From the NCBI RefSeq assembly GCF_037975245.1, contig NC_092564.1, positions 11,359,891-11,423,890 on the forward strand: a stretch of 64,000 nucleotides of DNA, in the 5' to 3' direction. The translations under genes were made by a program, and so were the position numbers. This document shows positions 30 to 61,522 of this stretch, piece after piece. How positions within the stretch are numbered: the first letter of the stretch is position 1; each line of letters opens with the position of its first letter. The DNA comes from Apostichopus japonicus. Taxonomy: Eukaryota. The notes beneath the pieces are model-generated. The model was given only the letters and a program-made list of their open reading frames with translations, was not told where the DNA came from and did no database searches.

Positions 30-1200
30 GGCCAGGTCGATAACGCGGAAACGCGGAAACCGCGGAAATCGATAAACCGGGTTCGGTAATAGAGATACCG
101 GGTTCGATATCAACGGTTTCCGCGGTTTCCGCGTTATCGACCTTGCTATATAGCAAGGTCGAAAACGCGGAAACCGCGGAAACGAGAGGAATTTGTCAAG
201 GGAGGGTGACGAAGTCTTTTGGGCGCATTTCAGCCTATATTCGCCAAAAAGGGGTGCGGGTTTAAAGCTATTTCAGTAAATGTAGGTCGAAAACGCGGAA
301 ATCGTACTTTTACAATGGACGAGTTAGATTATTTTGTCAAGGGAGGATAAAGACGTTTTTTGAGCGCATTTCAGCCAATATGCGCCAGGAGGGGTGGGAA
401 AGGGCTAAGGTTTTTTTTTATACTAAATGCAGGTCGCAAACGCGGAAATGTTTTTGTACACAATGAATGGCGAAACTAGAGGATTTGTCAAGGCGGAGGG
501 TGAAGAGTTTTCGGCGCATTTCAGTCAATATGCGCCAGGAAGGTGATGGAGTTGTAGGCTTTTCCCCTAAATGCAGGTCGAAAACGCGGAAATGTTTTTA
601 ACAAAGGCGGAACTAGAGGAGTTTGCCAAGGGAGGGAAATGAAGTGTTTTTGGCCGGCGCATTTCAGCCAATATGCGCCAGCAAAGGTGTGCGAGGTGGT
701 TTGAGGCTTTTACACTAAATACAGGTCGAAAACGCGGAAATGTTTTTAACAAAGGCGGAACTAGGGGAGTTTGTCAAGGGAGGGTGAAAAAGTGTTTTGG
801 CGCATTTCAGCTGTAATGCGCCAAGAAGGGGTGGGGTAAAATAATTTATTTTACTAAAAGCCGGTCGAAAACGCGGAATTGTTTTTTACAATGGTGAAAC
901 AAGAGAAACTAGGCACGGTGAAGATGTTTTCTGAGCGTATTTCAGCCAATATGCGCCACGAGGGGGTGCGGGAAGGGTGTAGCCTTTTTTAATACTAAAT
1001 GCAGGTCGAAAACGCGGAAATGTTTTTAACAAAGGCTGAACTAGAGGAGTTCGCTAAGGGAGGGAAATGAAGTGTTTTGGCCGGCGCATGTCAGCCAATA
1101 TGCGCCAGCAAGGTCTGGGGAGGTGGGTTGAGGCTGTTACACTAAATACAGGTTGAAAACGCGGAAATGTTTTTTTAACAATGGTGAAACTAGAGGATTT
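30..1200 (+). repeat. Foldback left arm: palindromic ~170-bp terminus plus about seven ~144-bp CpG-rich tandem subrepeats
   Basis: Unit starts 'aggtcgaaaacgcggaaat' fall at about 160, 287, 431, 575, 722, 862, 1004 and 1150. The terminus 38-150 is itself a palindrome, with 'gtcgataacgcggaaacgcggaaaccg' facing 'cggtttccgcggtttccgcgttatcgac', followed by 'ccttgctatatagcaagg'. Confidence 0.8.
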
Positions 1201-1483
1201 TGTGGTGGTTATTCCAGACATTAATCAAAGAAAATGTGACGTAGGCTATTAATATCAGAGCTTAAGTATTTCGCCATGGCATAAGTCTCAGCATACCGGT
1301 TCTTAAGCTAATAATTGAGTAGAGCTTGATATAAGTACTTCATACCCGACGAATCTAAGTGTTTTCTACATAACGATATCTCAAATAACAAACTTAAAAG
1401 AAAGAGAGTAAACACAAACGGAGGTACAATGGAAATTTTTTGATATAAACACGTATAGAACTAAAACATTAAGCTTTTTCAAG

Positions 1484-3345: not shown

Positions 3346-3479
3346 TTTTTTTATTAATATTACAACGTGCACACAATTGTTTCCGGGGACCTTAGCTCCT
3401 GTGTCGGAGAAATCCTGGAACCATCCCTGCATACCAATTGGACGTTAACAAACATTACTGAGTTTTCTGCCTGTATTTA

Positions 3480-4564
3480 GTGAAAAAAAGCTTCAAACCC
3501 AAACCCTAATTCTTGGCGCATGTTGGCTGAAATGCGCCCAAAACATTTCTTTACATTTCCTGCATGCATTTAGAGTATTTCCGTCATTGTTAAAAAAAAT
3601 TCGCGTTTTCGACATGCCTTTAGTGAAAAGACCTCAACCTCACCCCTTTCTGGCGCCTATTTGCTAAAATGCGCCCAAAACACCTTTTCACCCTGTCTTA
3701 ACAAAATCATCGAGTTGTGAAAAATGTTGTGAAGAAAAAAAAATTCGCGTTTTCGACATGCCTTTAGTAAAAAGACCTCAACCTCACCCCTTTCTGGCGC
3801 CTATTTGCTAAAATGCGCCCAAAACACCTTTTCACCCTGTCTTAACAAAATCATCGAGTTGTGAAAAATGTTGTGAAAAAAAAAAAAATTCCGCGTTTTC
3901 GACCTACACTAACTGAAAAAAGTCTCATACCCCCACTCCATCCTTGCACATATCGGCAAACACTTTTTTCCGCGTTTTCGACCTGCATTTAGTGATAAAA
4001 GCCTCAACCCCCTCCCCTCACCCCTTCCTGTCGCATTTTGGCTGAAATGCGCAGATCAAAAACATTTCTTTTCCCTCCCTTAGCAAACTCCTCTAGTTCC
4101 GGCTTTTCTTGAAAACATTTCCGCGTTTTCGACCGGCATTTAGTGAAACAAAATCTTCTATCCCCACCCCTCCTGGCGCATACTGGCTGAAATGCGCTCC
4201 AAATTTTTTCACCCTCTCTTGACAAATCATCTAGTTTCGCCATTGTAAAAAAAAAACATTTCCGCGTTTTCGACCTACACTACCCTCCCTTGACAAAATA
4301 ATCTAACTCATCCATTGTAAAGTACGATTTCCGCGTTTTCGACCTACATTTACTAGCTTTAAACCCGCACCCCTTTTTGGCGAATATAGGCTGAAATGCG
4401 CCCAAAAGACTTCGTCACCCTCCCTTGACAAATTCCTCTCGTTTCCGCGTTTTCGACCTTACTATATAGCAAGGTCGATAACGCGGAAACCGCGGAAACC
4501 GTTGATATCGAACCCGGTTTCTCGATTTCCGCGGTTTCCGCGTTTCCGCGTTATAGACCTGGCC
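3480..4564 (-). repeat. Foldback right arm: inverted copy of the left-arm subrepeat array plus terminal palindrome
   Basis: 'cgcgttttcgac' unit starts fall at 3603, 3751, 3893, 3970, 4122, 4263, 4333 and 4447. The terminus 'ccttactatatagcaaggtcgataacgcggaaaccgcggaaaccgttgatatcgaacccgg...' is the reverse complement of 100-200. Confidence 0.8.
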
Positions 4565-9083: not shown

Positions 9084-9635
9084 GTGCCAGCCAGATTAGT
9101 TTCTGGTTCGGCCGCGGATATCATGCCTCCAGAATCAGTGGAGGACTACTTCAGGCGAATATACCTGGAGGCAGTTGACACCATTGTCAACTGCATCCGC
9201 GATAGATTTGATCAGGAGGGTTACAAAATCTACTCAAAACTACAGCAGCTGCTTCTCAAAACGTGTAACCAACAACATGTTGACGAAGAACTGTTAAAAT
9301 TCGTATGTGACTTTTACGGCGAGGATCTCCGTAAGGGCGAGCTCAGAGTCCAACTAGAAACCCTTGGGGAAACCATGGAAGCTACGGCCAAACAATCAGA
9401 GTGGACTTTGCCAGAGGTTGTTGACCACATGCGAGGGTTGAGTTTCGGTAATCGTGAGCTCCTCTCACAAGTGTGCACGCTTGTCAAACTAATTTTAGTG
9501 ATGCCTGCGACAAATGCAGTAAGTGAACGCTCATTTAGTGCTATGAGTGTAAAGAGTTACTTAAGGTCTACAATGACCCAGCAGCGACTCAACCACCTTA
9601 TGATCTTACATGTACACAAAGATTATGCGGATTGA
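9084..9635 (+). pseudogene. hAT-superfamily transposase remnant (C-terminal hAT dimerisation region only)
   Basis: The translation ends '...LVMPATNAVSERSFSAMSVKSYLRSTMTQQRLNHLMILHVHKD', the signature hAT C-terminal dimerisation motif. ZMYM1-like, ZBED-like and P52rIPK-like proteins all share the '..SERSFS....K..LRS.M...RL..L..L..' pattern. No upstream ORF encodes the BED/RNase-H-like catalytic part. Confidence 0.7.
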
Positions 9636-13195: not shown

Positions 13196-14497
13196 ATGAA
13201 TATTCATTCAAAGGGACCCAATCACGGCCGAAAGAAAGCCATTCGGAATGCAGAAATAGAAGCACATCTTCGAAATAACGCAGTTGACGCAACTCTTGAG
13301 GTACAAATTGCAACATTAAACGAAAAAGAACGAAAGACCACCAGAAAGTTACAGACGCAATCTCGTAGTCTCTTAGAGTCGATACAAAGCGTCAAACTAG
13401 GACGCAGACAGCGTAATAAATCACTTCCGCGTAATTCGATGGTCCGGTCACGGAGTGGAAGTTTGACATCTTCTATCCCGAGACCCAGGACCTGCTTAGC
13501 TGATACATTCAATGTCGAACAGGGAAATGGCGTAGAAGTATTAAAGCTGCCTTCCATTGGAACGAAGTCTTTTGACAAAAATCGAAGTCTGCGCAGACTT
13601 AACTCTTCAGCACTGCAAAGGCGACGATTCAGTGAAAATGACGCGCTCGTTGAGTCACTGCGACGATTTAATGCGTTACGCATCGATGATTCGAATAATG
13701 AGTCTAGTAATCAAGACGACGGTCCGGAAATCTTACCTGTTGAACTGCCGAAATCGGCCAGACTTAGGGGCCGATCAGGGTCCTGTTTTGGGCGCCTGAT
13801 ATCTCATGCTGTTCCAGAACAAAACGACGACATTGTAATAGATACGGATCCACTCGAGAAAACCTATTCGACCATTAACTGTGCCGAAGAAAATATTTCA
13901 GGATCACATGACAACGAAATAAGTACTCAGAACCTTGACAAACAGTTAGAGAGTAAGACAAACAGATTAGAACAAACCGATAACCGCGATTCTGATATCG
14001 ATGCTGAAACGTGCACCGGGGATGTTGATGATGAAACGAAGTCTGAATATGAAGATGACTTAGCTAAAATCATACCCAAAATTGTGATTTCCGAGCATAA
14101 AAATAATTTGCCATCTCCGCCGAATGACGACAGAGCCAGTTCAACAAAAAGATCAGAGAGATCACTGCTATCTGCGAATCCGAGAAGACGTCTCTATGGA
14201 ACGCCGTCTGCACAGTCTGACTGGAGTAGGAATAAACCACTTCGTGAGGCCCGAAAGAAAAACACCTCCATATTGCCCTCGACATTCGCTGCTCTTTCCA
14301 TGAGTCGGAGGTTTTCGAGTCCAGATCCCTCAGAAGATGCAGTAAGAGCTCAACAAAGATTCCTAGAAAAGCTTAATCGTAGACGACGAAGCGAACAGAA
14401 TGAACTAGCGCAAAAGGTTCAAGAATTTATGAAACAATATACGCTTAGTAATAAGGAATTAGTTGATGAAGAAGGGGATAATGAAATAACTGAATAG
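13196..14497 (+). CDS. Intronless 433-aa ORF encoding a Ser/Arg/Asp/Glu-rich low-complexity (predicted disordered) protein with short coiled-coil segments and many RRxS-type motifs; hypothetical protein
   Basis: The reading frame is 1302 nt long, uninterrupted and non-repetitive, in roughly 38%-GC DNA where random ORFs rarely exceed about 80 codons. The ATG context is 'catcATGA' with A at -3. It matches no repeat family in the window. No domain was recognised by eye. Confidence 0.55.
   Translation: MNIHSKGPNHGRKKAIRNAEIEAHLRNNAVDATLEVQIATLNEKERKTTRKLQTQSRSLLESIQSVKLGRRQRNKSLPRNSMVRSRSGSLTSSIPRPRTCLADTFNVEQGNGVEVLKLPSIGTKSFDKNRSLRRLNSSALQRRRFSENDALVESLRRFNALRIDDSNNESSNQDDGPEILPVELPKSARLRGRSGSCFGRLISHAVPEQNDDIVIDTDPLEKTYSTINCAEENISGSHDNEISTQNLDKQLESKTNRLEQTDNRDSDIDAETCTGDVDDETKSEYEDDLAKIIPKIVISEHKNNLPSPPNDDRASSTKRSERSLLSANPRRRLYGTPSAQSDWSRNKPLREARKKNTSILPSTFAALSMSRRFSSPDPSEDAVRAQQRFLEKLNRRRRSEQNELAQKVQEFMKQYTLSNKELVDEEGDNEITE

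Positions 14498-20544: not shown

Positions 20545-20721
<177 letters not shown>

Positions 20722-26135: not shown

Positions 26136-26204
<69 letters not shown>
26136..26204. repeat. (TA)n microsatellite, left flank of hairpin element copy 2
   Basis: Direct read of the sequence. Confidence 0.95.
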
Positions 26205-26208
<4 letters not shown>

Positions 26209-26418
26209 TAGGTTGGCGTCTATCTTGGCGCAGAGTGCTCTATGTCCATTGGACAGAGCGTAATATATGATGAGACTAGTGGAACACTAGTAGTTGTTAC
26301 TCGGAGTTTCACGCGTTATAGCGATCTTCAGACAACTGTTGTCTGAAGATCGCTATAACGCGTGAAACTCCGAGTAACAACTACTAGTGTTCCACTAGTC
26401 TAATCCAGTAGTATCAAC

Positions 26419-26420
<2 letters not shown>
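26205..26420. mobile_element. Small hairpin/palindromic element, copy 2 (full ~70-bp perfect arms) flanked on both sides by long (TA)n
   Basis: Same 56-bp head, then a perfect palindrome centred at about 26338: '...actagtggaacactagtagttgttactcggagtttcacgcgttatagcgatcttcagacaac|tgttgtctgaagatcgctataacgcgtgaaactccgagtaacaactactagtgttccactagt...'. Confidence 0.75.

Positions 26421-26506
<86 letters not shown>
26421..26506. repeat. (AT)n microsatellite, right flank of hairpin element copy 2
   Basis: Direct read of the sequence. Confidence 0.95.
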
Positions 26507-26512
<6 letters not shown>

Positions 26513-29230: not shown

Positions 29231-29325
29231 GCAAGTGCCGTTTCCGGCCATCTAGAGGGTTTGTAAATCCCAAAATTTTCTTGTACGCTTCGCGCCAACA
29301 CATGGTGGCGCTACGCTTAGATAGT
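29231..29325 (+). repeat. ~95-bp dispersed repeat, copy E (followed by MITE-family GC-hairpin fragment 29340-29420)
   Basis: 'gcaagtgccgtttccggccatctagagggtttgtaaatcccaaaattttcttgtacgcttcgcgccaacacatggtggcgctacgcttagatagt'. Confidence 0.7.
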
Positions 29326-32300
29326 CAACAAGGTCATATCCCCCCACTCGGAAGTTCGGATCGCCGCCCATGGGGAGTGGTATAAGGGGAGAGGGAGGGG
29401 GTGTTCCCCTCCCCTTTTGATTTTTTTTGGAATCCTGGTGATGCCTACATGTAAAATAGTGGCACTTAGAAAGGCTTTGGTCACCCAAAATCTTCTGAGA
29501 AATATGCATTTTTTTTGTGTGTAACATCAATAAATTGAATAGTAGGGTGATAATTCATTCTTTCCCGTGGCATGAAAATGTTCGCTGCTCGCCCCAATGA
29601 AAAGAATTATAGGCTAATTTGAGGTTCAAATGATGCTGTAAAGGAGGTTTTATACTCTATTATGCTAAATGCTAAAGAAATGATGGTTGCTAGGTCAAAA
29701 TTTGATGCAAATTTTTTAATGTATACTTGACAATTACAATGCGGTTTTTTCCGACGCTTGTGCCGGTCAGCGGGTTTGGGTGTTAGAATGCGGGTCTAAA
29801 AATTTTTATCACTCACTTATAAGGCGCTTCACGGATCTGCACCATCTTATCTGAAGGACCTTCTTAAACCACGATCAGTGAGCTACTCCATACGATCTCA
29901 TGACAGTTTGATTTTAACTACCCCCCGTACTCGCTGCAAGTCCCTTGGTGACCGATCTTTTTGTGTCTATGCCCCCAAATTGTGGAATGCACTCCCATTT
30001 TCTATTCGCAATTCAAGTACTGTAAGTTCATTTAAATCCAGTCTTAAGACTCATTTTCACACGTGTATATAATTAATCTAGTTTTACTCATTTTCACACG
30101 TGTATATAATTAATCTAGTTTTACTTATTATCTCATTCTTTTTGTATTTATCTCTTACTATTGTTTTATCCTATTTATCACAGAGTGGCATGGTATATAC
30201 TGACTTCGTTGTCTCCATCGTTATTGGATTTGTTTAGTCTTTTAGGGTTATCTGTTTTTAAGATTGTTACCTCTTTCTTATGATTAACTTGGTTTCTTAA
30301 TTTTCTTTAAGTTTTTTACCTTTACTCTTTTAAGTTTGTACAGCGCCATAGCTTTTGTTTTTACATATATATGTGCGCTTTAGAAATGTTTAAATAATAA
30401 TAATAATAAATAGTCTACCACTGCTATTCCTTTCGATTTTTTTAGTTTCCAATCATATGATTTAGCGGATGTTCGGAAACACTTTTTGGCTCACCTTTGG
30501 GGGGGGGGCATGGCCCCCCTTGGCCCCGCCAGTGATACCTACCTGTATATGGAAAGCTTAATGTTAAACTAATGGTTATTCGTTAAAATACAACCCAGCT
30601 ATATCGACCGATACGGTGATGGTTAATCGGTTCAGTTTTGACGGTTAACAGTCTTTGCTTATAGTGTGGTGTGCGGAGCGAGGAATTAGGCAGCGTTAAT
30701 AAATGCACTTAAGGTTTCAAATGCAAACAGACAATCGACGAGAACTGAGGACTAATGAAATGTACTGTTGATCAGAATTTTATTATAAGATTTGTTAAGG
30801 AAACCTCCTTAACTTTTACACATAGATAACAAATAAGACAACAATAAGATGGAACAGGTTTATCGGAGACATCAAATGGTGCTTTTAATACTATAGTCTT
30901 ATAAGACTCTTAATTATAATTTTTATAAACTTGGCGTTATTTATATCATGACAGAAAAAGAAACGAAGAGCTGTTTATTATTTACTACACTATACCAGCA
31001 GGCTGTCACACTGTTGTGGCCTACAGCCAATCACAGTCCAGGCTGTCACACTGTTGTGACCTACATCCAATCAGGGTCACAAGTTCAAATGAACACATCG
31101 CGCACTTTTGATTGACAGGCTCTTCTGTTTGGTTATATTGCTAATGTTTACTATGATGCATTGTTTATAACATAATGAACAATAAATGAACATTTTATAC
31201 TTCAAAAAGCAAGTTATAAACATCTGAAGAAAAACTAACATTGTCAATAACTCTGTTCAATGATAAATAGGATGTGAATGTGAAGAATAAAAAAAATCTG
31301 GAGAAACTCTATGAATCTCACTTTATCGAATACCACGAGCCCGCCCCCCCCCCCCCAAATGTTTAAAATAATTCAGGTTTTAATTTGATTTCTTTCTTTA
31401 AAGTTGGACAGTTTTTAAACAAATAAATTGGCGATATCACAACATGACACAGACATAAATGATCTGCACTATATCACAAAACTTATAAACAAATTTTAAA
31501 GCAAAATTGGCAAAAAGGTTACCATAACAACAAAGAGGAAAACATAAACAATCAAGAAATGCAAAGAACATGTAATATAAACAATGGAGGCTATTCTAAC
31601 ATTATTTCTACTTAATCATCATCCTCATTAGCTAGAAACAAAATTATCTAGTAGGAAAACCTTGATTCAAGTCTAAAGAATTTGAGAGCTAAGTGCCAAA
31701 AGTAGCTGATCAACTATGTGTGAAAGAAGAAAGAATTATGAGGCTTGATACATTAGCTGAATACATTATTGTTTGAAATCTTCAAAAACCTTATAACATA
31801 TCGCAATATTAAATACATAACACTTCATCTTGACCGACTATGTACTGACAGTAGAGATATACCTAGTAGGAGCAGGAAAGTTTACCCAAAGACCAACACT
31901 GTTCTCAACATTCCTCAAGAAAAACAAAAACATTAAGTTGGCAAGTTTCCTTACATACATTCGTCTGAGTTGGGATCAAATTCGACTGAGGTCAAAATAT
32001 TGACAGCAAATAACATAATCTTGATTTCAAGGAAAAAAAAATTTGGCAAGGAATTGGAGTCTATTTTTGAGATTAAGTGAACTGAAATCAACAAACGGTT
32101 GATTTCTCATTTCTCTGAATCGTCAAATAAGATGTTCTTCGTCAGAATATATATGGTAACATGTGTTAAGACTAAACATGTTGTGGGGGATGTTTACTAA
32201 TGTCATACAAAATCAGAGCTTATCATGTTCTCAGGCTTGAAGAGAGAGTGAGGGAGAGGTCAGATGGGGTGGAAGAGGGTCAGATGGGAGGAAGGGGTCA

Positions 32301-52599: not shown

Positions 52600-54115
52600 A
52601 TGAACGCTGAAAAACAAATCCTTTAAGAAACACGAGGCAACTTCGAGTACTGAATTCCGTGCAAGCTTGCCATATTATGCATGATAGATACAACATGCCT
52701 TCTTTCCAAGATAAGTATCTTAACTTGCTTTTACCGATCGACAGAGGAGGATTCAGTTTGAGCGACATTGAATTAACAAGAGATGCTCTTATAATTAAAT
52801 TTTGTAGTAAGATATTAAGTAATAACATTAATATTATATTACAAAAATTAATGTTGTATTTTTTCAAATATGTATGAAGATATGAGCCTTGGGCGTGGTA
52901 TCTTTCAAATTACTCCTAACCACAAGTCTGTTCATAAGCTAAGCCCGTATTACCGTGAACTCATGTTAGCATGGGATCGGCTAATTCAAGGCCGCTTCTG
53001 GCTACCAGAGACCAGAGAAGACATCCTCAATCAACCTATCTTTAGTAATACCCTGATTGTTGACAATGATAGTCAAACACTTTTTAATCTTCATTAAAGG
53101 TGGTATCGTTTCTGTCAGTGATCTGATGTATGAGATTATACCCACTTCTCTGCCAGCCAAGGCCGTGCATGAGTGCATTGAGCTTGGTAATCCCGATAAC
53201 CCCCTTACCAAGTAATCGATGTTCAGAATTATATCGATGTCATTCTCCACGCCTTCCCCTCTGACTGGTTAGGTGATATATTTTCTTCTGATGCAATTGT
53301 ATCTACGCATTTTACTGTATTCCTACTGTAAAATTTCAAAATGGCAAAAACATTATTGATGCCTCCCCAGTTTCGTGAAGAATAGCTTCACGCCTTTTGC
53401 GTGACAATCTTACATCGCCCAAGGGCGAAGAATACTGGAAGCAGCATTTTCCCAGTCTTGATTTTTCTAATAGATGGAGTAACATATATTGTTCTCCAAA
53501 GTGTTTCTTTGATGCCGATATCGACTTCAAAGTATTACATAATATTCTTTACACTAACGACAAATTGTACAAGTTTGGATTAACCGATTCTCCTTACTGC
53601 ACCTTTTGCAAAACCACGAACGAAAGTACTATTCCTCTTTTTATTGAGTGTTCTGAAGTCGAAAATTTATGGCACTTTTTGGTTAATAAGTTGAGTACTT
53701 TACATCCGGTAGTTAACTAAGATGAATGGAAGGGGTTGTCCCTTCTGGGTCTTGGCCGTAAAAACAATTGTATTGTAGGAATTTTGTGTGACTTCATCTT
53801 CAATATATATAAGTGTACAATTTGGAATTGTAGAATATCTCGCCTTAATAATAACTATCTTTGTAATATTGAAAAAAGTTTTTCACAATGTACTCAAGAA
53901 GAAAATTCGTTTACTTTTTGATGTGTACTACCACCAAAACAAGATCTCACGGTTTTTAATATATTTACACAGAACGATATTGTGCTCTCTAAAAAAGAAT
54001 CGAACAGCTATACTTACCATCTGGATAGGGGTTAATTTGTATAGAGTACGTGTTGACGTAAGCATGGTCTGGTCTTTTAACTTTGCTTTAGACATTGTTG
54101 TCTTTTGTATATAAT
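52600..54115 (+). mobile_element. 5'-truncated, frameshifted non-LTR retrotransposon (LINE; CR1/L2/RTE-like) 3' portion: RT C-terminal region plus zf-RVT-like tail
   Basis: The segments 'RGGFSLSDIELTRDALIIKFCSKIL', 'HKLSPYYRELMLAWDRL...ILNQPIFSNTLI' and 'WKQHFPSLDFSNRWSNIYCSPKCFFDADIDFKVLHNILYTNDKLYKFGLTDSPYCTFCKTTNESTIPLFIECSEVENLWHFLVNKL' match the conserved C-terminal 'ILNQPLF.N' and CCHC-like zf-RVT pattern of LINE ORF2. They sit in three different frames. Confidence 0.7.
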
Positions 54116-54295
54116 CTCTTTTTTCTGTGGTGATTAATAATTTAGTTTTCTCTTAACTTAAACGTGAGTAAATGTTAAGATAATTATTATTTAATGTTCT
54201 ACATAAATAATAACATACTTAAGTTTTAATTCTGTAAAACATACCTTTGTAAATAATGTTGACAATGGGTGAGCCAGTGGGCTCATCTCCCAATT

Positions 54296-55186
54296 AAAGA
54301 GGCGCGATGGCTTGGCGCACTGTACGAGCTAATGATCGAGATCCTCTTTGGGATCCGTGGTTCGAACCCCGGTGATGACGTCTTTTGCCGATCTTTTACA
54401 GCTCGTGCCTACACGGGGAGCTGTGAGTATTAGTTAATCCATCTAATATCTCAGTCCATACAGTGGCGCGATGGCTTGGCGCACTGTACGAGCTGATGAT
54501 CGAGACTCTCTTTTGGATCCGTGGTTCGAATCCCGGTGATGACGTCTTTTGCCGATCTTTTACAGCTGGTGCCTACACGGGGAGCTGTAAGTATTAGTTA
54601 ATCCACCTAATATCTCAGTCCATACAGTGGCGCGATGGCTTGGCGCACTGTACGAGCTGATGATCATCTCTCTTTTGCATCCGTGGTTCGAACCCCGGTG
54701 ACGTCTTTTGCCGATCTTTTACAGCTCGTGCCTACACGGGGAGCTGTAAGTATTAGTTAATTCACCTAATATCTCAGTCCATACAGTGGCACGATGGCTT
54801 GGCGCACTGTACGAGCTGATGATCATCTCTCTTTTGCATCCGTGGTTCGAACCCCGGTGACGTCTTTTGCCGATCTTTTACAGCTCGTGCCTACACGGGG
54901 AGCTGTAAGTATTAGTTAATCCACCTAATATCTCAGTCCATACAGTGGCGCGATGGCTTGGCGCACTGTACGAGCTGATGATCATCTCTCTTTTGCATCC
55001 GTGGTTCGAACCCCGGTGACGTCTTTTGCCGATCTTTTACAGCTCGTGCCTACATTGGGAGCTGTAACTTAGTTAATCGGCATAATATCTCAGTCCATAC
55101 AGTGGCGCGATGGCTTGGCGCACTGTCCGAGCTTTTGAGCGAGACTCTCTTTTGCATCGGTGGTTCGAACCCCGGTGACGTCTTTT
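54296..55186 (+). repeat. Tandem array of six ~162-bp tRNA-like (SINE-head-like) units directly 3' of the LINE
   Basis: The unit reads 'acagtggcgcgatggcttggcgcactgtacgagctgatgatc...ccgtggttcgaa(t/c)cccggtga(tg)acgtcttttgccgatcttttacagctcgtgcctacacggggagctgtaagtattagttaatccacctaatatctcagtccat'. It has D-arm-like 'gcgcgatggcttggcgc' and T-loop-like 'ggttcgaatcc'. Unit starts fall at about 54301, 54466, 54626, 54788, 54947 and 55107. Confidence 0.8.
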
Positions 55187-55614
55187 TCCTAACTGTTCTT
55201 TCAGTGTCATGCACGGCCATTCACTCTGGTATTTTAAAATGTATTAGTACCCTACTCCCTAGGGCCTATCTATTAAAATCTGTTTCAAGTTGGAAGCATT
55301 GTGAGGCACAAATAAAATCGTGTGTCACAAAAAGTCATGTACACAATTGGGTTTTGAATGTGCTGAAAATAAAGTGAAATAAAGTAAATCCCAACGTTAT
55401 ATGTCGATCTTCGTCAACTTATCTGCTTGGAGGCCCCAAAGTCTCCTTACTACAAAAGCTATGTTAATATTTGTATATTTGTTTTTGTATTTGTTTCATC
55501 ATTATTTACAGTGTGACGGGAAGTCTCCTATAAAGCCTGCAAGGCTTAAAAAAGTAGGACACTCCCCAAAAAGAAAAAAGAAAGAAAAGCTTTAGAATAG
55601 AAAAAGGAAAAAAT

Positions 55615-55830
55615 ATAACAAAGGGGTCACCTTTTTTTTTCTTCAACAAATTATATTTTGACGACATAGTGAATTACCCAAAAAATACAGTCCTTTTGGC
55701 GTTCCATTGTAGACTCCTTATACTACAAAAGCTATGTTAACATAACAAAGGGGTCACCTTCTTTTTTCTTCAACAAATTATATTCGACGACACAGTGAAT
55801 TATCCAAAATATACAGTCGTTTTGGCGTTC
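55615..55830 (+). repeat. Tandem duplication, ~125-bp unit x ~1.7 ('ataacaaaggggtcacctt.ttttttcttcaacaaattatatt..gacgaca.agtgaatta.ccaaaa.atacagtc.ttttggcgttcca')
   Basis: Direct read. 'tactacaaaagctatgttaa' also occurs at 55444. Confidence 0.8.
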
Positions 55831-55867
55831 CATAGGAAAACGACTTTGACAAGTCTATGTTCCTATG

Positions 55868-56790
55868 GTAGCATACGCCCATTAACAATCCCCATTGACT
55901 TACACACTAAATCACAAAAGTAATGTGGTCTCTAAGTCTAGATAGAAGTTTTCACTAGCTAAACGCTACCCATCACCGGATAGCTGACAAGTTGGCCTTT
56001 CATGGCACCATCAATTTTCCGTATCATGACAATGTAGATTTTTTGCTTTCCGAGCCGGAAGCTTTCGTCACTTGTAAACAAACCTCTTCACTCAGTGGTA
56101 AACAAGTTTCCCACGCTGCTCCTGGGAGGCCTAAAGGGGTCTAAAATTGCCTCAATCGACCCAATTTTCTCACCACATGTACTTCCATTCATGCCCTTCA
56201 ACATGCAAGCCACAAAAAAACTAGATTATGATTGATAACAGGTCACAAAAGATGTTCTCCTGCTGCTTTTCGGCACTTTTCCTGAAGGAGAACAATCGAG
56301 CGGATTTATATAGACTCTAGTAAGAGTATGCCACCTTAAGTAGCATACGCCCATGAAAAGCCCCATTGACTTACACACTAAATCACAAAAGTAATGTCTT
56401 CTCTAAGCCTAGATAGAAGTTTTCACTTGCTAAACGCTACCCATCACTGGATAGCTGACAAGTTGGCCTTTCATAGCACCATCAATTTTCCGTACCATGA
56501 CAATGTAGATTTATTTTGCTACGAGAGCCGGAACTTTTCGTCACTTGTAAACAACCTCTCCACTCAGCGGTAAACAAATTTCCTACGCTGCTCCTTGGAG
56601 GCCTAAAGGGGTCTAAAATTGCCTCAATTGACCCAATATGCTTCCATTCATGTTCTTTAACATCAAAGCCACAAAAAAGCACATCCTAATTGATAACATA
56701 GCAAAAAGTTGTTCTGCTCCTAATTGGCACTTTTCCTGAAGGAGAACATTTGCCGCGGATTGATATATACGCTAATAGGAGTATGCCACC
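55868..56790 (+). repeat. Two tandem copies of a ~440-480-bp unit immediately upstream of the MARS1-like start codon
   Basis: Unit 1 spans about 55868-56345 and unit 2 about 56350-56790, both delimited by 'gtagcatacgccc...gagtatgccacc'. Identity is roughly 85%. Shared long stretches include 'ccccattgacttacacactaaatcacaaaagtaatgt' and 'ctaaacgctacccatcac.ggatagctgacaagttggcctttcat'. Confidence 0.85.
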
Positions 56791-57019
56791 TGAAGCTACA
56801 GAGTAGGGATGAATCTGAATCCTGGGATGAATCCTGTGATAGCTTCAGGTTGGTCTTCCGCTGCTTATTTTCAAATGGTATCAATGGGCTCCATAACGTT
56901 TGAATACCACCCCGTTTTCTGATGCAATATTTGTTTCAATGTTTGTAGGTTTTCATCAGGAACAAGTAAGAGTAGTAGTACATATACTCTGAGAAATTTA
57001 GGAACTAAGTTCACGCAAA

Positions 57020-57122
57020 ATGAAGCTCTTTACAGATAAAGGGAATCAACATTCTCTAAAGATTTTAGTTGCCGCAGAACTAGCCGGAATCAGTCTGGAG
57101 ATTGAACATGTGGATAGCGCAG
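57020..57122 (+). CDS. MARS1: Methionyl-tRNA synthetase (cytoplasmic MetRS) exon 1: start codon plus N-terminus of GST-like domain
   Basis: Translates as 'MKLFTDKGNQHSLKILVAAELAGISLEIEHVDSA' and aligns with human MARS1 '[34 protein letters not shown]'. The donor is 'GCAG|gtatag' and the ATG context is 'gcaaaATGa'. Confidence 0.8.
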
Positions 57123-58781
57123 GTATAGCAGAATTATACTGGGAGGCATTTCGCTACGGAATTAAAACATATGTAATTGTGTACAGTACTAGGCCAGGCC
57201 CTAGGCTACAGTAGGGCTATAGAAATCCATCAAGCTTTGCAGTATCGCAGCCTAAGATAAATGTTAAACTTTTAAGACGTATACATAATCAGTATTGTGT
57301 AAGTGCAAGGGAATATAAAATAGTAAGTAGTTTATTGTGAAAATTTATTGTCTTGTACTTGTTATCTTTATTTTTGGTGGGCTTCTTGTACAAGCTACGG
57401 CTTCCAAGCCCTTCCACCATTTTCTCTCCGTAATTTCCATCATTTTTCTTTTATATGATTTATTACCTATTATTTTCTTTGCATGGTATTGTCTTCACAG
57501 TCCTATTATTATATAAACATTGTGAGGAAATGGAAAAATAAATGAAATGAAATGAAATTTTCTCTGGCTAAAATGATCAGCTCGTCATAACATTAACAGT
57601 GCCACTATAAATGTATGTTAAATTGTAGAGGCTTGATCTGTGACATTCATGACCAAATAGGATAAAGTGGTGTATTTACATGAGGCGGATAATCATCTGG
57701 TAATCTGAATTATTTACCATGTTGTAAATATCAACATTTAATTGTTCTACTGATTCTACTGGGCTTAAAACAATATAAAATGTTGATTTAAGCTGTTTCT
57801 GCTAATAATTGGAAATATTACTTTGTTAGTAATCTTTCTGCCTGATGTGATTTTCCTGTTGGTGCTCACATCTAAGCGGTTGTAATTGTGAATTGAAGAA
57901 CAGGGAGGGAGGAACATTTGTTTTGCCACAGCTATTGTCTGACACGTACAGTAGGGGGACACATGCTAAACACACTAAACAAGAATGCTTAAACAAATTA
58001 TGAAGGAAAGTAACTTTCTTAGATTTATGGTACCTCTTTTATTTATTTATTTTAAAGTTGCAAATTATAAGTTTCTCCAAAGCTGTTGGCCTAAATATCT
58101 TGATTATTTCAGTAATTCACTGTTAATCAACTTGTTACTGTTACCATTGTTAAGTATTTCAATGAAAAAAAATCATTTTAAAAACACACAACTCAAAGAA
58201 AAAATTAAAATATATTTTTTATCCTGAATACATAACTACTGTTAGTGGCCTAAACAAAAAATAAATAGCTTTTAGAATTATACAATCAGTAATACTGTAC
58301 TTTATAAATCTGTTACCTACAAGTTAAAATTCAGCTAAAAACATTAAAAAAACACAGCCTTTCTCTCTTAAAATTCACTACAAATCTGTCCATTAACATT
58401 TAGCAAGGACAGACTGCGGCTCTTTTTAAGAGAAATAAAAAAAATGTGTTCCGTCATTTTTCTTTTAATATTATTTTTCAATTTATAAGGTTATTCCAAC
58501 AAACTTACAGCATATTCCATGTACTCCAAACAAAACTAGTTGTTAAATACGCCACAGAAGGTTCTTTCCGACACACCTTTTTCTATGGTTAAAATGACCA
58601 TTTTTTTTTATGGCATAATGGCAAGAACTACAATAAATGTGAGGAAATTAATAGTCACCAACTTTAGGCACTGGGAAGAAGAATTTGACAATTTTTAGTC
58701 TGTTTTTCTTCTTTCTGGATTACAAATTAAGTTAATTGAGATCAGATATGGTGCATAACCTCTTTCTCCTTAATTTTGCAG

Positions 58782-60261: not shown

Positions 60262-61041
60262 GTAATTTGCTTCCTTCCTTCCTTGTTCAACAAAGAGGGC
60301 ATTTGCTAATGAAGCTAACTGCTGTGCACTAGAAGGAACATTTTTTATGTAACGGGCAGGATAGCGAGTATAGCTGCTTTCACTTCTTAAATGGCGAGAT
60401 AAGTTGAGGAGTTTTTGAGGCTATTTTGGAGGTAGGGCAGATCGTCAATATAGACTCTTATCATATGGAAGTAGTGTTCTCAGTGTTCCACTGGTTGTTG
60501 TTTCATATGGAGGTTAAGCAACTTCAACTATAAACATTTGAAATTAGAAAACAACATGGATTTGTGATTAAGATCATAATTGTCACACTGGAAGATTATA
60601 AAGCCCTGTTGCCTTAAAAGTTGAGCAATCTTGGAATGCTTACACTATTTTGCTAGTTGCACTAATCTGCTAACAAATTCACAGCATTGAGCATATTGAG
60701 CATACACAATGCATTCAAATGAAACAGTGCGAGAAATACTTATATGTTTTCGGTGAAGCAGTGACAGGATTAAGACAAATGTGTCTGTAGCCGACATATT
60801 GCGTGGTTGTTACTCAAGGCCTATTTCACTGTTGGAAAAACATTTTCATAATTGTAATAAGTAACAAAACAACACTGTACTTGTTGCACACAAAAACCTT
60901 CCATAATTCCATCTGGTTTCTAAATATGTGCTTGCAATAAGCCGAACCTGTTCTACCAATCAGGTATTCATTCAAGTCTGCAAACGTTTTTTAATTGTGT
61001 TTATATCTTTATTTTCACAAGATCGTTTCTCTTTAACACAG

Positions 61042-61329
61042 GACCAACTATCAGCTGCCGATGTTTGCCTTTTTGCTGCCCTCTATCCGCTGTATGCCAA
61101 CAATAAATCATGCTTTGAAAATTTTTCAAATCTGAATGCCTGGTTTACCAAACTTCATGCTGAACCACCATTTGGAGCTTCTGTTGCCAAGGTGACAGAA
61201 GGAAAAGGCAGCAGTTCACTGAAAGCCTCCATCCTTGCTCAACCATTGGTCAACACTCTTCCAGTAGCGAGGAGTGTGTCTAATGAGAAAGGAAAGTCAT
61301 CAAAAGATAAAGAAAATTCAACGACAGAG
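61042..61329 (+). CDS. MARS1: MetRS exon 5 (end of GST-like domain plus linker)
   Basis: Acceptor 'aacacag|GAC' and donor 'GAG|gtgagg'. Translates as 'DQLSAADVCLFAALYPLYANNKSCFENFSNLNAWFTKLHAEPPFGASVAKV...', matching human '[52 protein letters not shown]'. Confidence 0.85.
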
Positions 61330-61522
61330 GTGAGGCTTACAATTTAAAGATTTATTGTCTTCTTAAGAATATTTCTGCTCTTCTCACTGGTTTGTTTAAG
61401 TATGATTGTTTGAAGTATTTTCTATAATACCAAATGGTTCTCTTGTACATAATGTGTTTTATCAAAGCATTTGGTTGCCATAGTTACTGATATTAACATG
61501 TGTTCATGATCAATTTTTACAG

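Follow-up and report, generated by a model that had tools for sequence, protein, structure and literature searches.

Retrotransposons of the Tx1 clade, which lack long terminal repeats (non-LTR), are known to be target-specific, with families that favour particular multicopy sequences (PMC4494074). According to PMC3706591 and PMC4494074, which cite Kojima & Fujiwara 2004, the target-specific elements of this clade include Dewa, Keno, Mutsu, Kibi, and Koshi; Dewa is placed there in the tandem tRNA-Leu arrays of zebrafish, in the tRNA-Leu spacer. Other non-LTR elements are specific for transfer RNA (tRNA) genes, such as NeSL-1_TV (tRNA-Pro), LIN15_SM (tRNA-Arg), and LIN25_SM (tRNA-Glu), all of the restriction-like endonuclease (RLE) type (PMC4640811), and tRNA genes are used as safe havens by the Dictyostelium elements TRE5/TRE3 and by the Dada DNA transposons (PMC3706591). 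tRNA-related sequences also form tandem families, among them PolIII/TAN of Cynops, OAX/satellite I of Xenopus, Rana/polIII, and Hy/polIII, described with the SINE-derived satellites sSat1-3 of squamates (PMC10702118), as well as short interspersed nuclear elements (SINEs), such as the tRNA-derived SURF1/SINE2-4c_SP and SINE2-3_SP of sea urchin, the echinoderm partners being CR1/L2 (PMC3747384). Here, we describe a locus of the sea cucumber Apostichopus japonicus where the tail of a long interspersed nuclear element (LINE) directly abuts a short tandem array of tRNA-like units. It lies in a stretch of 64,000 nucleotides (contig NC_092564.1 of assembly GCF_037975245.1, positions 11,359,891 to 11,423,890), hereafter called the window, whose numbering is used throughout; the LINE and the array are both on its + strand. 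The reading that we favour, with a probability of roughly 0.6, is that a tRNA-targeting L1-group LINE of the Tx1/Dewa kind was inserted at a tRNA-derived tandem array.

The LINE is a decayed and 5′-truncated remnant of a second open reading frame (ORF2), delimited at 52716..54035 by tblastn with three library proteins (P0122, P0127, and P0129). Its stretch 52716-54032 is collinear, in three frames, with residues 858-1292 of the 1293 residues of P0129, and the remnant corresponds to residues 84-524 of the 524 residues of P0122, last residue included; the C-terminal ~435 residues, that is, the C-terminal third of ORF2, are all that is kept, and the apurinic/apyrimidinic-type endonuclease (APE) and reverse transcriptase (RT) domains are missing. 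The end of ORF2 reads ...YHLDRG and is closed by a TAA stop at 54033-54035. By eye, similarity may reach upstream to ~52640, and a similarity search of the window found no LINE-like sequence upstream of the remnant. Frameshifts and in-frame stops are visible in the translation; this copy of the LINE is old and 5′-truncated. A zf-RVT (Cys/His) domain (Pfam PF13966) was recognised at 53520..53672 in the frame +1 translation (E 3.1e-6, 28.2 bits for a cutoff of 27.5). The truncated LINE announced by the original prediction, which had been made from the letters of the window, is thus real, and so is its zf-RVT-like C-terminus; the end that had been given for the latter, ~54110, has to be moved back to the stop codon.

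Relatives of this LINE came from an exhaustive HMMER protein search, a word-based search with the LINE C-terminus having returned none: 1906 library proteins match the zf-RVT region at E<=1e-3, the best at 7e-29 and 51-53% identity, and the annotated A. japonicus “pol-like protein” PIK62472.1 is one of the relatives. Exo_endo_phos, RVT_1, and zf-RVT domains are all present in P0129 and P0133, relatives of full length (~1300 aa), and in the element encoding P0129, ORF2 is preceded by an ORF1 with a CCHC zinc knuckle (zf-CCHC). The lineage has the APE, the RT, and the Cys-rich C-terminus of an L1-group (L1/Tx1) ORF2, together with an A-rich 3′ tail. Since P0129 is collinear with human LINE-1 ORF2p across 870 residues (E 2e-80), the window LINE, as judged from its protein relatives, belongs to the L1 group. 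Further copies of the LINE gave no confirmed match in the genome and viral contig collections where a search pattern could be built.

Downstream of the ORF2 stop lies the 3′ untranslated region (UTR; 54036..54300), whose final 53 nt ahead of the array (54247-54298) align with the 3′ UTR end of the related LINE at locus L002 (79%, E 1.7e-6). This region contains a terminal hairpin, GGTGAGCC-AGTG-GGCTCATC (54268..54287), with an 8-bp stem and an AGUG loop. The hairpin and its variants are common to seven loci, where they lie 110-330 nt past the ORF2 stop, ahead of (C)AATAAA and an A-rich tail; in the alignment of these loci, 98.2% of the cells are paired, four of the eight pairs show compensatory changes, and the covariation score was reached by none of 500 shuffles and by no slid register. 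In the window, the hairpin is followed by CCCAATTAAAGAG, and the very next base is the first G of the first array unit. The tail itself, AATTAAAGAG (54292..54301), is made of a poly(A)-signal-like motif and a very short A-rich tail, with counterparts in CAAATAAAAGAG(A)n at locus L005 and CCAATAAA...AAAAAAAGAG at L002. Hairpin, AAUAAA, and an A-rich tail often ending in AAAGAG are a conserved 3′ module of this LINE lineage. Because the hairpin and the AATAAA are conserved in the seven loci, the end of the LINE can be placed at 54299-54301 (with an ambiguity of 1-2 nt), directly on the head of the first unit; with the ORF2 stop at 54033-54035 and a 3′ UTR reaching ~54300, the gap between LINE and array is 0 bp, and the ~180 bp previously thought to separate them are LINE sequence.

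We then have to consider what adjoins this 3′ end in the related copies. Five 3′ junctions are informative, those of the window, L002, L005, L006, and L008, the other loci ending within the hairpin or the poly(A) or short of it. At L002, the junction reads ...AAAAAAAG|AGAGCGCTCGCTTTGCATGCGAG...CTCCA, and the flank is a 5′-truncated tRNA covering positions 20-71 of the Rfam tRNA model (27.7 bits, E 1.2e-4); this tRNA-Ala fragment shares 49 of 53 positions with an intact tRNA-Ala(AGC) (its positions 21-73) that starts 460 bp downstream (L002 4143). At L005 (...AAAAGAGAAAAAAAAAAG|GCGTCCGTACGTAAAACGCAAGGTCCGTGGTTCGAATCCCGGTGGAGTCA), the flank is again a 5′-truncated tRNA, covering model positions 22-71 with 18.1 bits and an E of 0.052 when one T is taken as a bulge. 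It is also found by a profile of the window heads (nhmmer, E 4.8e-4), and its T arm, TCCGTGGTTCGAATCCCGGTG, aligns with that of the second window unit with a score of 42, the shuffle maximum being 26. At L008 (...AAAAAAAAAAAA|CTGGTCTTGTATACTAGGGGCCGTCAGTTCGAA, after which the contig ends), the flank CTGGT-CTTGTAT-ACTAG...GTTCGAA was read by eye as an anticodon arm (TGT) and a T loop (consensus positions 27-57), and by eye only can it be called a tRNA-Thr-like fragment starting from about position 27. Four of the five informative junctions, with the window and the by-eye L008 included, therefore carry tRNA or tRNA-like sequence, with tool support for L002 and L005 only; the orientation is the same throughout, and the identity of the tRNA differs between copies. 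In this small sample, L008 being assigned by eye, the same class of target recurs at independent copies of the LINE. Three of the junctions have ...AG|(A/G)GCG(C/T) in common, and the window head contains GGCGC at two places, its first base and base 14; this shared motif would fit a sequence cue for integration. The L002 locus also shows a tRNA cluster in its own right, with a pair of tRNA-Ala genes, one with anticodon TGC disrupted by the LINE (3631-3683) and one with anticodon AGC left intact (4143-4215). A possible homology between the bodies of the window units and the downstream flank of L005 was discarded, as its score (28, for shuffles at 22 +/- 3.7) is not significant.

The flanking tRNAs lack a CCA end and are followed by T-runs and gene-type trailers; for these reasons, and given the second tRNA gene nearby in L002, their sequences indicate that they are genomic genes and neither retro-copied mature tRNAs nor parts of the element. 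This bears on another scenario, in which the tRNA-like sequence was part of the LINE transcript, either 3′-transduced or acquired by an RT switch from a (pre-)tRNA, and was expanded into an array afterwards. Indeed, the fragments of L002, L005, and L008 all begin near position 20-27 and extend as far as the 3′ end of the tRNA, as would result if the RT halted within a tRNA and then switched templates. We nevertheless regard this scenario as quite improbable: besides the missing CCA, the trailers with T-runs come without a second poly(A), the intact tRNA-Ala 460 bp downstream in L002 is what one expects of a genomic cluster, and head 1 of the window is complete instead of starting from ~22 and is followed by further units with spacers.

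The array itself occupies 54301..55190, as established by Tandem Repeats Finder (TRF), self-BLAST, and unit alignment. TRF reports a single array of head-to-tail copies of one unit at 54301-55186 (period 159, 5.5 copies, 94% matches, score 1481), and self-BLAST sets its bounds at 54295-55197. In the alignment, units 1 and 2 (54301-54464 and 54465-54628) measure 164 bp each, units 3 and 4 (54629-54787 and 54788-54946) 159 bp each, and unit 5 (54947-55103) 157 bp, and unit 6 (55104-~55190) is a head only; the tandem array of the original prediction stands, but its six ~162-bp units become five full ones of 157-164 bp plus a sixth head. The array opens with GGCGCGATGG and closes with GGTGACGTCTTTTT, so a head is found at both ends. 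Each head, the probably tRNA-derived part, is 81-86 nt long, and the spacer that follows is 78 bp long. Head 1 runs from GGCGCGATGG to GACGTCTTTT (54301..54386), and the other heads are at 54465-54550, 54629-54709, 54788-54868, 54947-55027, and 55104-55186. Body (or spacer) 1, of 78 bp (54387..54464), begins just past a first run of four T (T4) and holds a second one, and bodies 2-5 are at 54551-54628, 54710-54787, 54869-54946, and 55028-55103. In units 1-5, head and body are separated by GACGTC-TTTT-GCCGATC-TTTT, that is, by two T4 runs seven bases apart. The spacer contains a 9-bp hairpin, TTACAGCTC-N13-GAGCTGTAA, perfect in units 3-5 and carrying a single mismatch in unit 1 as well as in unit 2; as the spacer folds no better than its shuffles (z -1.26), we make no structural claim for it.

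The units are not all of the same age. Heads 3, 4, and 5 share 98.8-100% identity (100% for 3 vs 5, 98.8% for 3 vs 4), and the edge heads 1, 2, and 6 are 88-94% identical to them and among themselves; identities thus form a hierarchy, from 99-100% for the central units down to 88-94% for those at the edges. Nesting of this sort is what stepwise unequal exchange typically produces, in contrast to one single event. The array has a GC content of 51% and a CpG observed/expected ratio of 1.12, vs 0.71 for the window, and the sequence of the anticodon region differs by indels among units. It is 0.9 kb long and was seen at one locus, with a gene start 1.8 kb downstream. No second copy of the unit was found in the 64 kb window (blastn, nhmmer), two metagenome DNA scans with the array unit gave no match (the pattern of the first scan was ill-designed), and the ORFs of the array had no match in the protein collection. 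A candidate body copy at 29279-29329 (nhmmer, E 0.57) proved, on reading, to be unrelated sequence. A miniature inverted-repeat transposable element with terminal inverted repeats around the array was also considered and rejected, the sole candidate being an AT-rich 15-nt pair (54248/55496) without target-site duplication.

Several features relate the heads to tRNA. A pattern match places a box B/T-loop, GGTTCGAACCC, at 54359..54369, with more at 54523, 54685, 54844, 55003, and 55162. Box B in its consensus form GGTTCGANNCC (GGTTCGAAYCC) is perfect in all six heads (0.14 occurrences expected) and absent outside the array; there are six occurrences of the T-loop motif CCGTGGTTCGAAYCCCGGTGA and five of the body motif, all within the array, with 0 expected in shuffles in either case. 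One longer string that had been quoted for the units, ccgtggttcgaatcccgg, is present in exactly that form in unit 2 only; units 1 and 3-5 have ...gaaccccgg in its place, and unit 6 has cggtggttcgaaccccgg. In the heads, box B lies in a T-arm stem, CCG(T)GG/CCCGG, with one T bulged; a box-A-like TGGC is found 35-60 nt upstream of it and a T4 run 13-16 nt downstream. Box A proper (TRGCNNAGTGG) is matched partly, by TGGCTTGGCGC or TGGCGCGATGG, at best at 9/11 positions by eye. The composite pattern of TGGC, box B, and TTTT was found within the window in the array only and had 0 matches in shuffles. The T arm of unit 2 is identical at 21/21 positions to that of the L005 tRNA fragment, those of units 1 and 3-5 at 20/21, and that of unit 6 at 19/21. 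Because of the box B set in a T arm, the box-A-like motif, the T4 run, and this T-arm identity, we consider the units of the array very probably tRNA-derived.

The cloverleaf is another matter. At its default setting, ARAGORN finds 0 tRNA genes in the whole window; no Rfam family reaches its gathering threshold in the window, and, at E<=10, the Rfam tRNA model matches neither the whole array nor one unit nor a stretch trimmed to resemble a 5′-truncated tRNA. ARAGORN reports the heads only at ps80, with inconsistent anticodons, a setting at which the rest of the window has 23 matches (0.37/kb). The heads fold no better than shuffles (z +0.96, -0.53). Given these ARAGORN and Rfam negatives and the background rate at ps80, a tRNA cloverleaf in the units is not supported: no detector or model recognises in them the cloverleaf of a functional tRNA gene. 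The tRNA-like character claimed for the units thus holds for box B and its T arm, the box-A-like motif, and the T4 run, and fails for the cloverleaf. Candidate parent tRNAs of the heads (Thr, Tyr, Ser, and Leu-like) were compared; none was convincing, and none is claimed.

One may also ask whether the heads are kept by selection as functional small RNA genes of a non-canonical kind, for example an unusual tRNA, an RNA resembling the C/D-box class, or the repeat of a ribozyme-bearing retrozyme. The RNA polymerase III (Pol III)-type layout kept in all six heads, the undepleted CpG, and weak C/D-box-like Rfam matches (E 5-10) speak for it. The heads, however, match no Rfam family at E<=1, with no hammerhead or other ribozyme and no tRNA; they fold like shuffles, their conservation among units is explained by recent duplication, and there are indels in the anticodon region between units, so that we find this explanation very improbable. 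As to individual candidates, a hammerhead retrozyme was rejected since, despite a CTGATGA motif, no Rfam ribozyme family matched at E<=10, and a C/D-box small nucleolar RNA was likewise set aside, the CTGATGA and GTGATGA + CTGA motifs of the heads and their Rfam E-values of 5-10 being treated as chance.

Could the whole arrangement be fortuitous, i.e., an ordinary LINE or a local minisatellite lying beside coincidental tRNA-like motifs? Short tandem arrays (140-470 bp) are abundant, with several in the window; the cloverleaf is unsupported in the units, and the flank of L006 is not tRNA. Against this, the distance between the LINE tail and the first head is zero, the composite of box-A-like motif, box B, and T4 has no match in shuffles, and the T arm of unit 2 is identical (those of the others at 19-20/21 positions) to that of a tRNA fragment recognised by a model. 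Moreover, tRNA genes represent, by a rough estimate, about 1e-4 to 1e-3 of an animal genome, so three independent relatives with tRNA sequence at the same junction and in the same orientation are far beyond chance. Coincidence is therefore unlikely, and we hold that the adjacency of LINE and array is not due to chance. On this point the original prediction, which had linked the LINE and the array, is supported. As the tails of the related LINEs join genuine tRNA genes, the array looks most likely to be the target of the LINE rather than its product.

The opposite direction had initially been proposed, namely that template switching in the course of target-primed reverse transcription amplified tRNA-SINE units in tandem at the LINE 3′ end or, alternatively, that the array is a satellite born from a SINE mobilised by the LINE. 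The units do carry Pol III box B and box-A-like motifs, the array abuts the LINE tail, and SINE-derived satellites and tRNA-related tandem families exist, such as sSat1-3, PolIII/TAN, OAX, and Rana/polIII (PMC10702118). The structure of the unit, however, does not suit a SINE: the two T4 runs right after the head would stop transcription before the body. Indeed, Pol III terminates at T runs. A terminator-free succession of head, body, and tail is thus missing, and so is a 3′ region common with the LINE: the comparison suggested for the unit and LINE 3′ tails was made with the unit and 54036-54300 and gave no similarity (blastn with word size 9, nhmmer --max). With its terminators behind the head, the unit resembles a tRNA gene and its trailer more than it does a SINE. 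Nested unit identities of 88-100% do not fit a single RT event, which speaks against template switching in one round of target-primed reverse transcription; no second copy exists in the 64 kb window, and the metagenome scans, of which the first suffered from its pattern, were empty. Related LINE copies, furthermore, adjoin ordinary tRNA genes of differing identity, and echinoderm tRNA-SINEs pair with CR1/L2 (PMC3747384), when the window LINE is of the L1 group. A SINE origin of the array, in either form, is accordingly improbable, and the causal direction was most likely the reverse of the one first put forward: the LINE went to the array.

In the reading that we favour, insertion of an L1-group LINE at a tRNA-derived array, the LINE lineage would use target-primed reverse transcription to enter tRNA genes and sequences derived from them, in the same orientation and beside a G|GCG(Y) motif located in the D-stem region. 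Here, its point of entry would have been either a tandem array or a lone unit from which the array later expanded; growth and homogenisation of the array would have taken place at the DNA level, through unequal exchange or slippage, with the central units presumably the youngest and the edge units the oldest. That integration was directed, where the nick was made, and whether the array came first or expanded after the insertion are points that we infer, and the heads may still bind TFIIIC or Pol III. One has to keep in mind what weighs against this reading. There are five informative junctions only, four of them from short metagenomic or unassigned contigs; among them, the flank of L006 is not tRNA, and the 34-nt stub of L008 has no Rfam match. 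The window junction falls at the first nucleotide of a head, vs tRNA position ~20-27 in L002, L005, and L008. A search of the window found no array or tRNA sequence upstream of the LINE 5′ end, so at this locus the putative target is seen on one side of the insertion only. Neither model used (ARAGORN at default, Rfam) recognises the window heads as tRNA, and the placement of the LINE with Tx1, made by likeness, is a putative one.

A more ambitious version can be formulated, which we put forward tentatively and at somewhat less than even odds. The LINE would belong to a previously undescribed APE-type (L1/Tx1-group) lineage of echinoderms and other marine animals, sequence-specific for the D-arm region of several tRNA genes and of their degenerate tandem derivatives and guided by its 3′ hairpin and AAAGAG tail; the array would then act as a pseudo-tRNA “landing pad”, kept and enlarged because insertions are absorbed there without harm.

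How does this lineage compare with the systems described so far? Like Dewa and the other Tx1 elements, as presented in PMC3706591 and PMC4494074, it is an APE-encoding L1-group LINE located at multicopy RNA genes or repeats. Unlike Dewa, reported there from the spacer of tRNA-Leu, its junctions fall within the tRNA (~20-27) or at the first base of a head, they involve differing tRNAs (Ala, Thr-like, and a further fragment), and they are found in an echinoderm host and in relatives from marine samples. NeSL-1_TV, LIN15_SM, and LIN25_SM share with it the insertion inside tRNA genes; elements of the NeSL group, however, encode a restriction-like endonuclease, whereas the present lineage encodes an APE and is collinear with L1 ORF2p. 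The TRE elements differ by inserting at a distance from tRNA genes via Pol III factors, and Dada elements by being DDE transposons with target-site duplications of 6-7 bp.

On the side of the array, the tRNA-related tandem families offer head-to-tail units of ~70-360 bp with a tRNA-related segment and Pol III boxes, and they include short loci with few, variable units, all of which is also the case in the window. The window array differs from these families and from sSat1-3 by its 5.6 units seen at one locus, its terminators placed right after the tRNA-like part, its echinoderm host, a LINE tail directly joined to it, and the lack of a known parent SINE. The sea urchin SINE2 elements have a tRNA-related head with box A/B motifs, as do the window heads, but their read-through body with a LINE-derived tail, dispersed copies, and CR1/L2 partner have no equivalent in the 64 kb of the window.

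Taken alone, the array would be ordinary, one more example, this time from an echinoderm, of tRNA-related tandem repeats. Target-directed integration into multicopy Pol III genes is a known kind of answer to the puzzle of an array at a LINE tail. If our reading is true, what it adds is an APE-type LINE landing inside tRNA genes of several identities; insertion within tRNA genes has so far been described mainly for RLE-type elements, and Dewa sits in tRNA spacers. It would also provide a defined 3′ RNA module for studying template and target choice by L1-group reverse transcriptases.

Other features of the window deserve a mention. Just downstream of the array, two tandem duplications, 2 x ~127 bp at 92% (55612-55833) and 2 x ~472 bp at 85% (55868-56795), make the 2.5 kb before the next gene a patchwork of three unrelated short arrays. 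This gene has an apparent start at 57021-57130 (MKLFTDKGNQHSLKILVAAELAGISLEIEHVDSA, then a GT splice donor), ~1.8 kb downstream of the array with its six box B motifs, and a later exon at 60928-61347 with a glutathione S-transferase (GST) C-terminal domain (Pfam, E 8e-5); its product is a GST-fold protein, possibly of the aminoacyl-tRNA-synthetase-complex type. At the other end of the window, 115-1203 (+) and 3444-4500 (-) are inverted arrays of a ~141-144 bp repeat, up to 92% identical between arms, enclosing a different, 184-bp tandem array (1475-2341); this foldback-like layout may be that of a composite transposable element. An intact ORF with a hAT dimerisation domain (9084-9635), not multicopy in the collection, is 98% identical to the product of a 1.9 kb contig put together from a public sequencing run (Logan) and 88% identical to a Holothuria leucospilota protein; it resembles a domesticated, conserved gene of the hAT/ZMYM type more than an active transposon. 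A 433-aa Ser/Arg/Asn-rich ORF without Pfam domain (13196-14497) is a gene call in the public record, where it stands in reverse orientation on contig MRZV01000063.1 of the A. japonicus assembly GCA_002754855.1. Finally, (AT)n microsatellites that are long and perfect, with as many as 83 repeats, are found at 20548-20714 and 26136-26509, and one of them produces a spurious 110-aa “IYIYIY” ORF.

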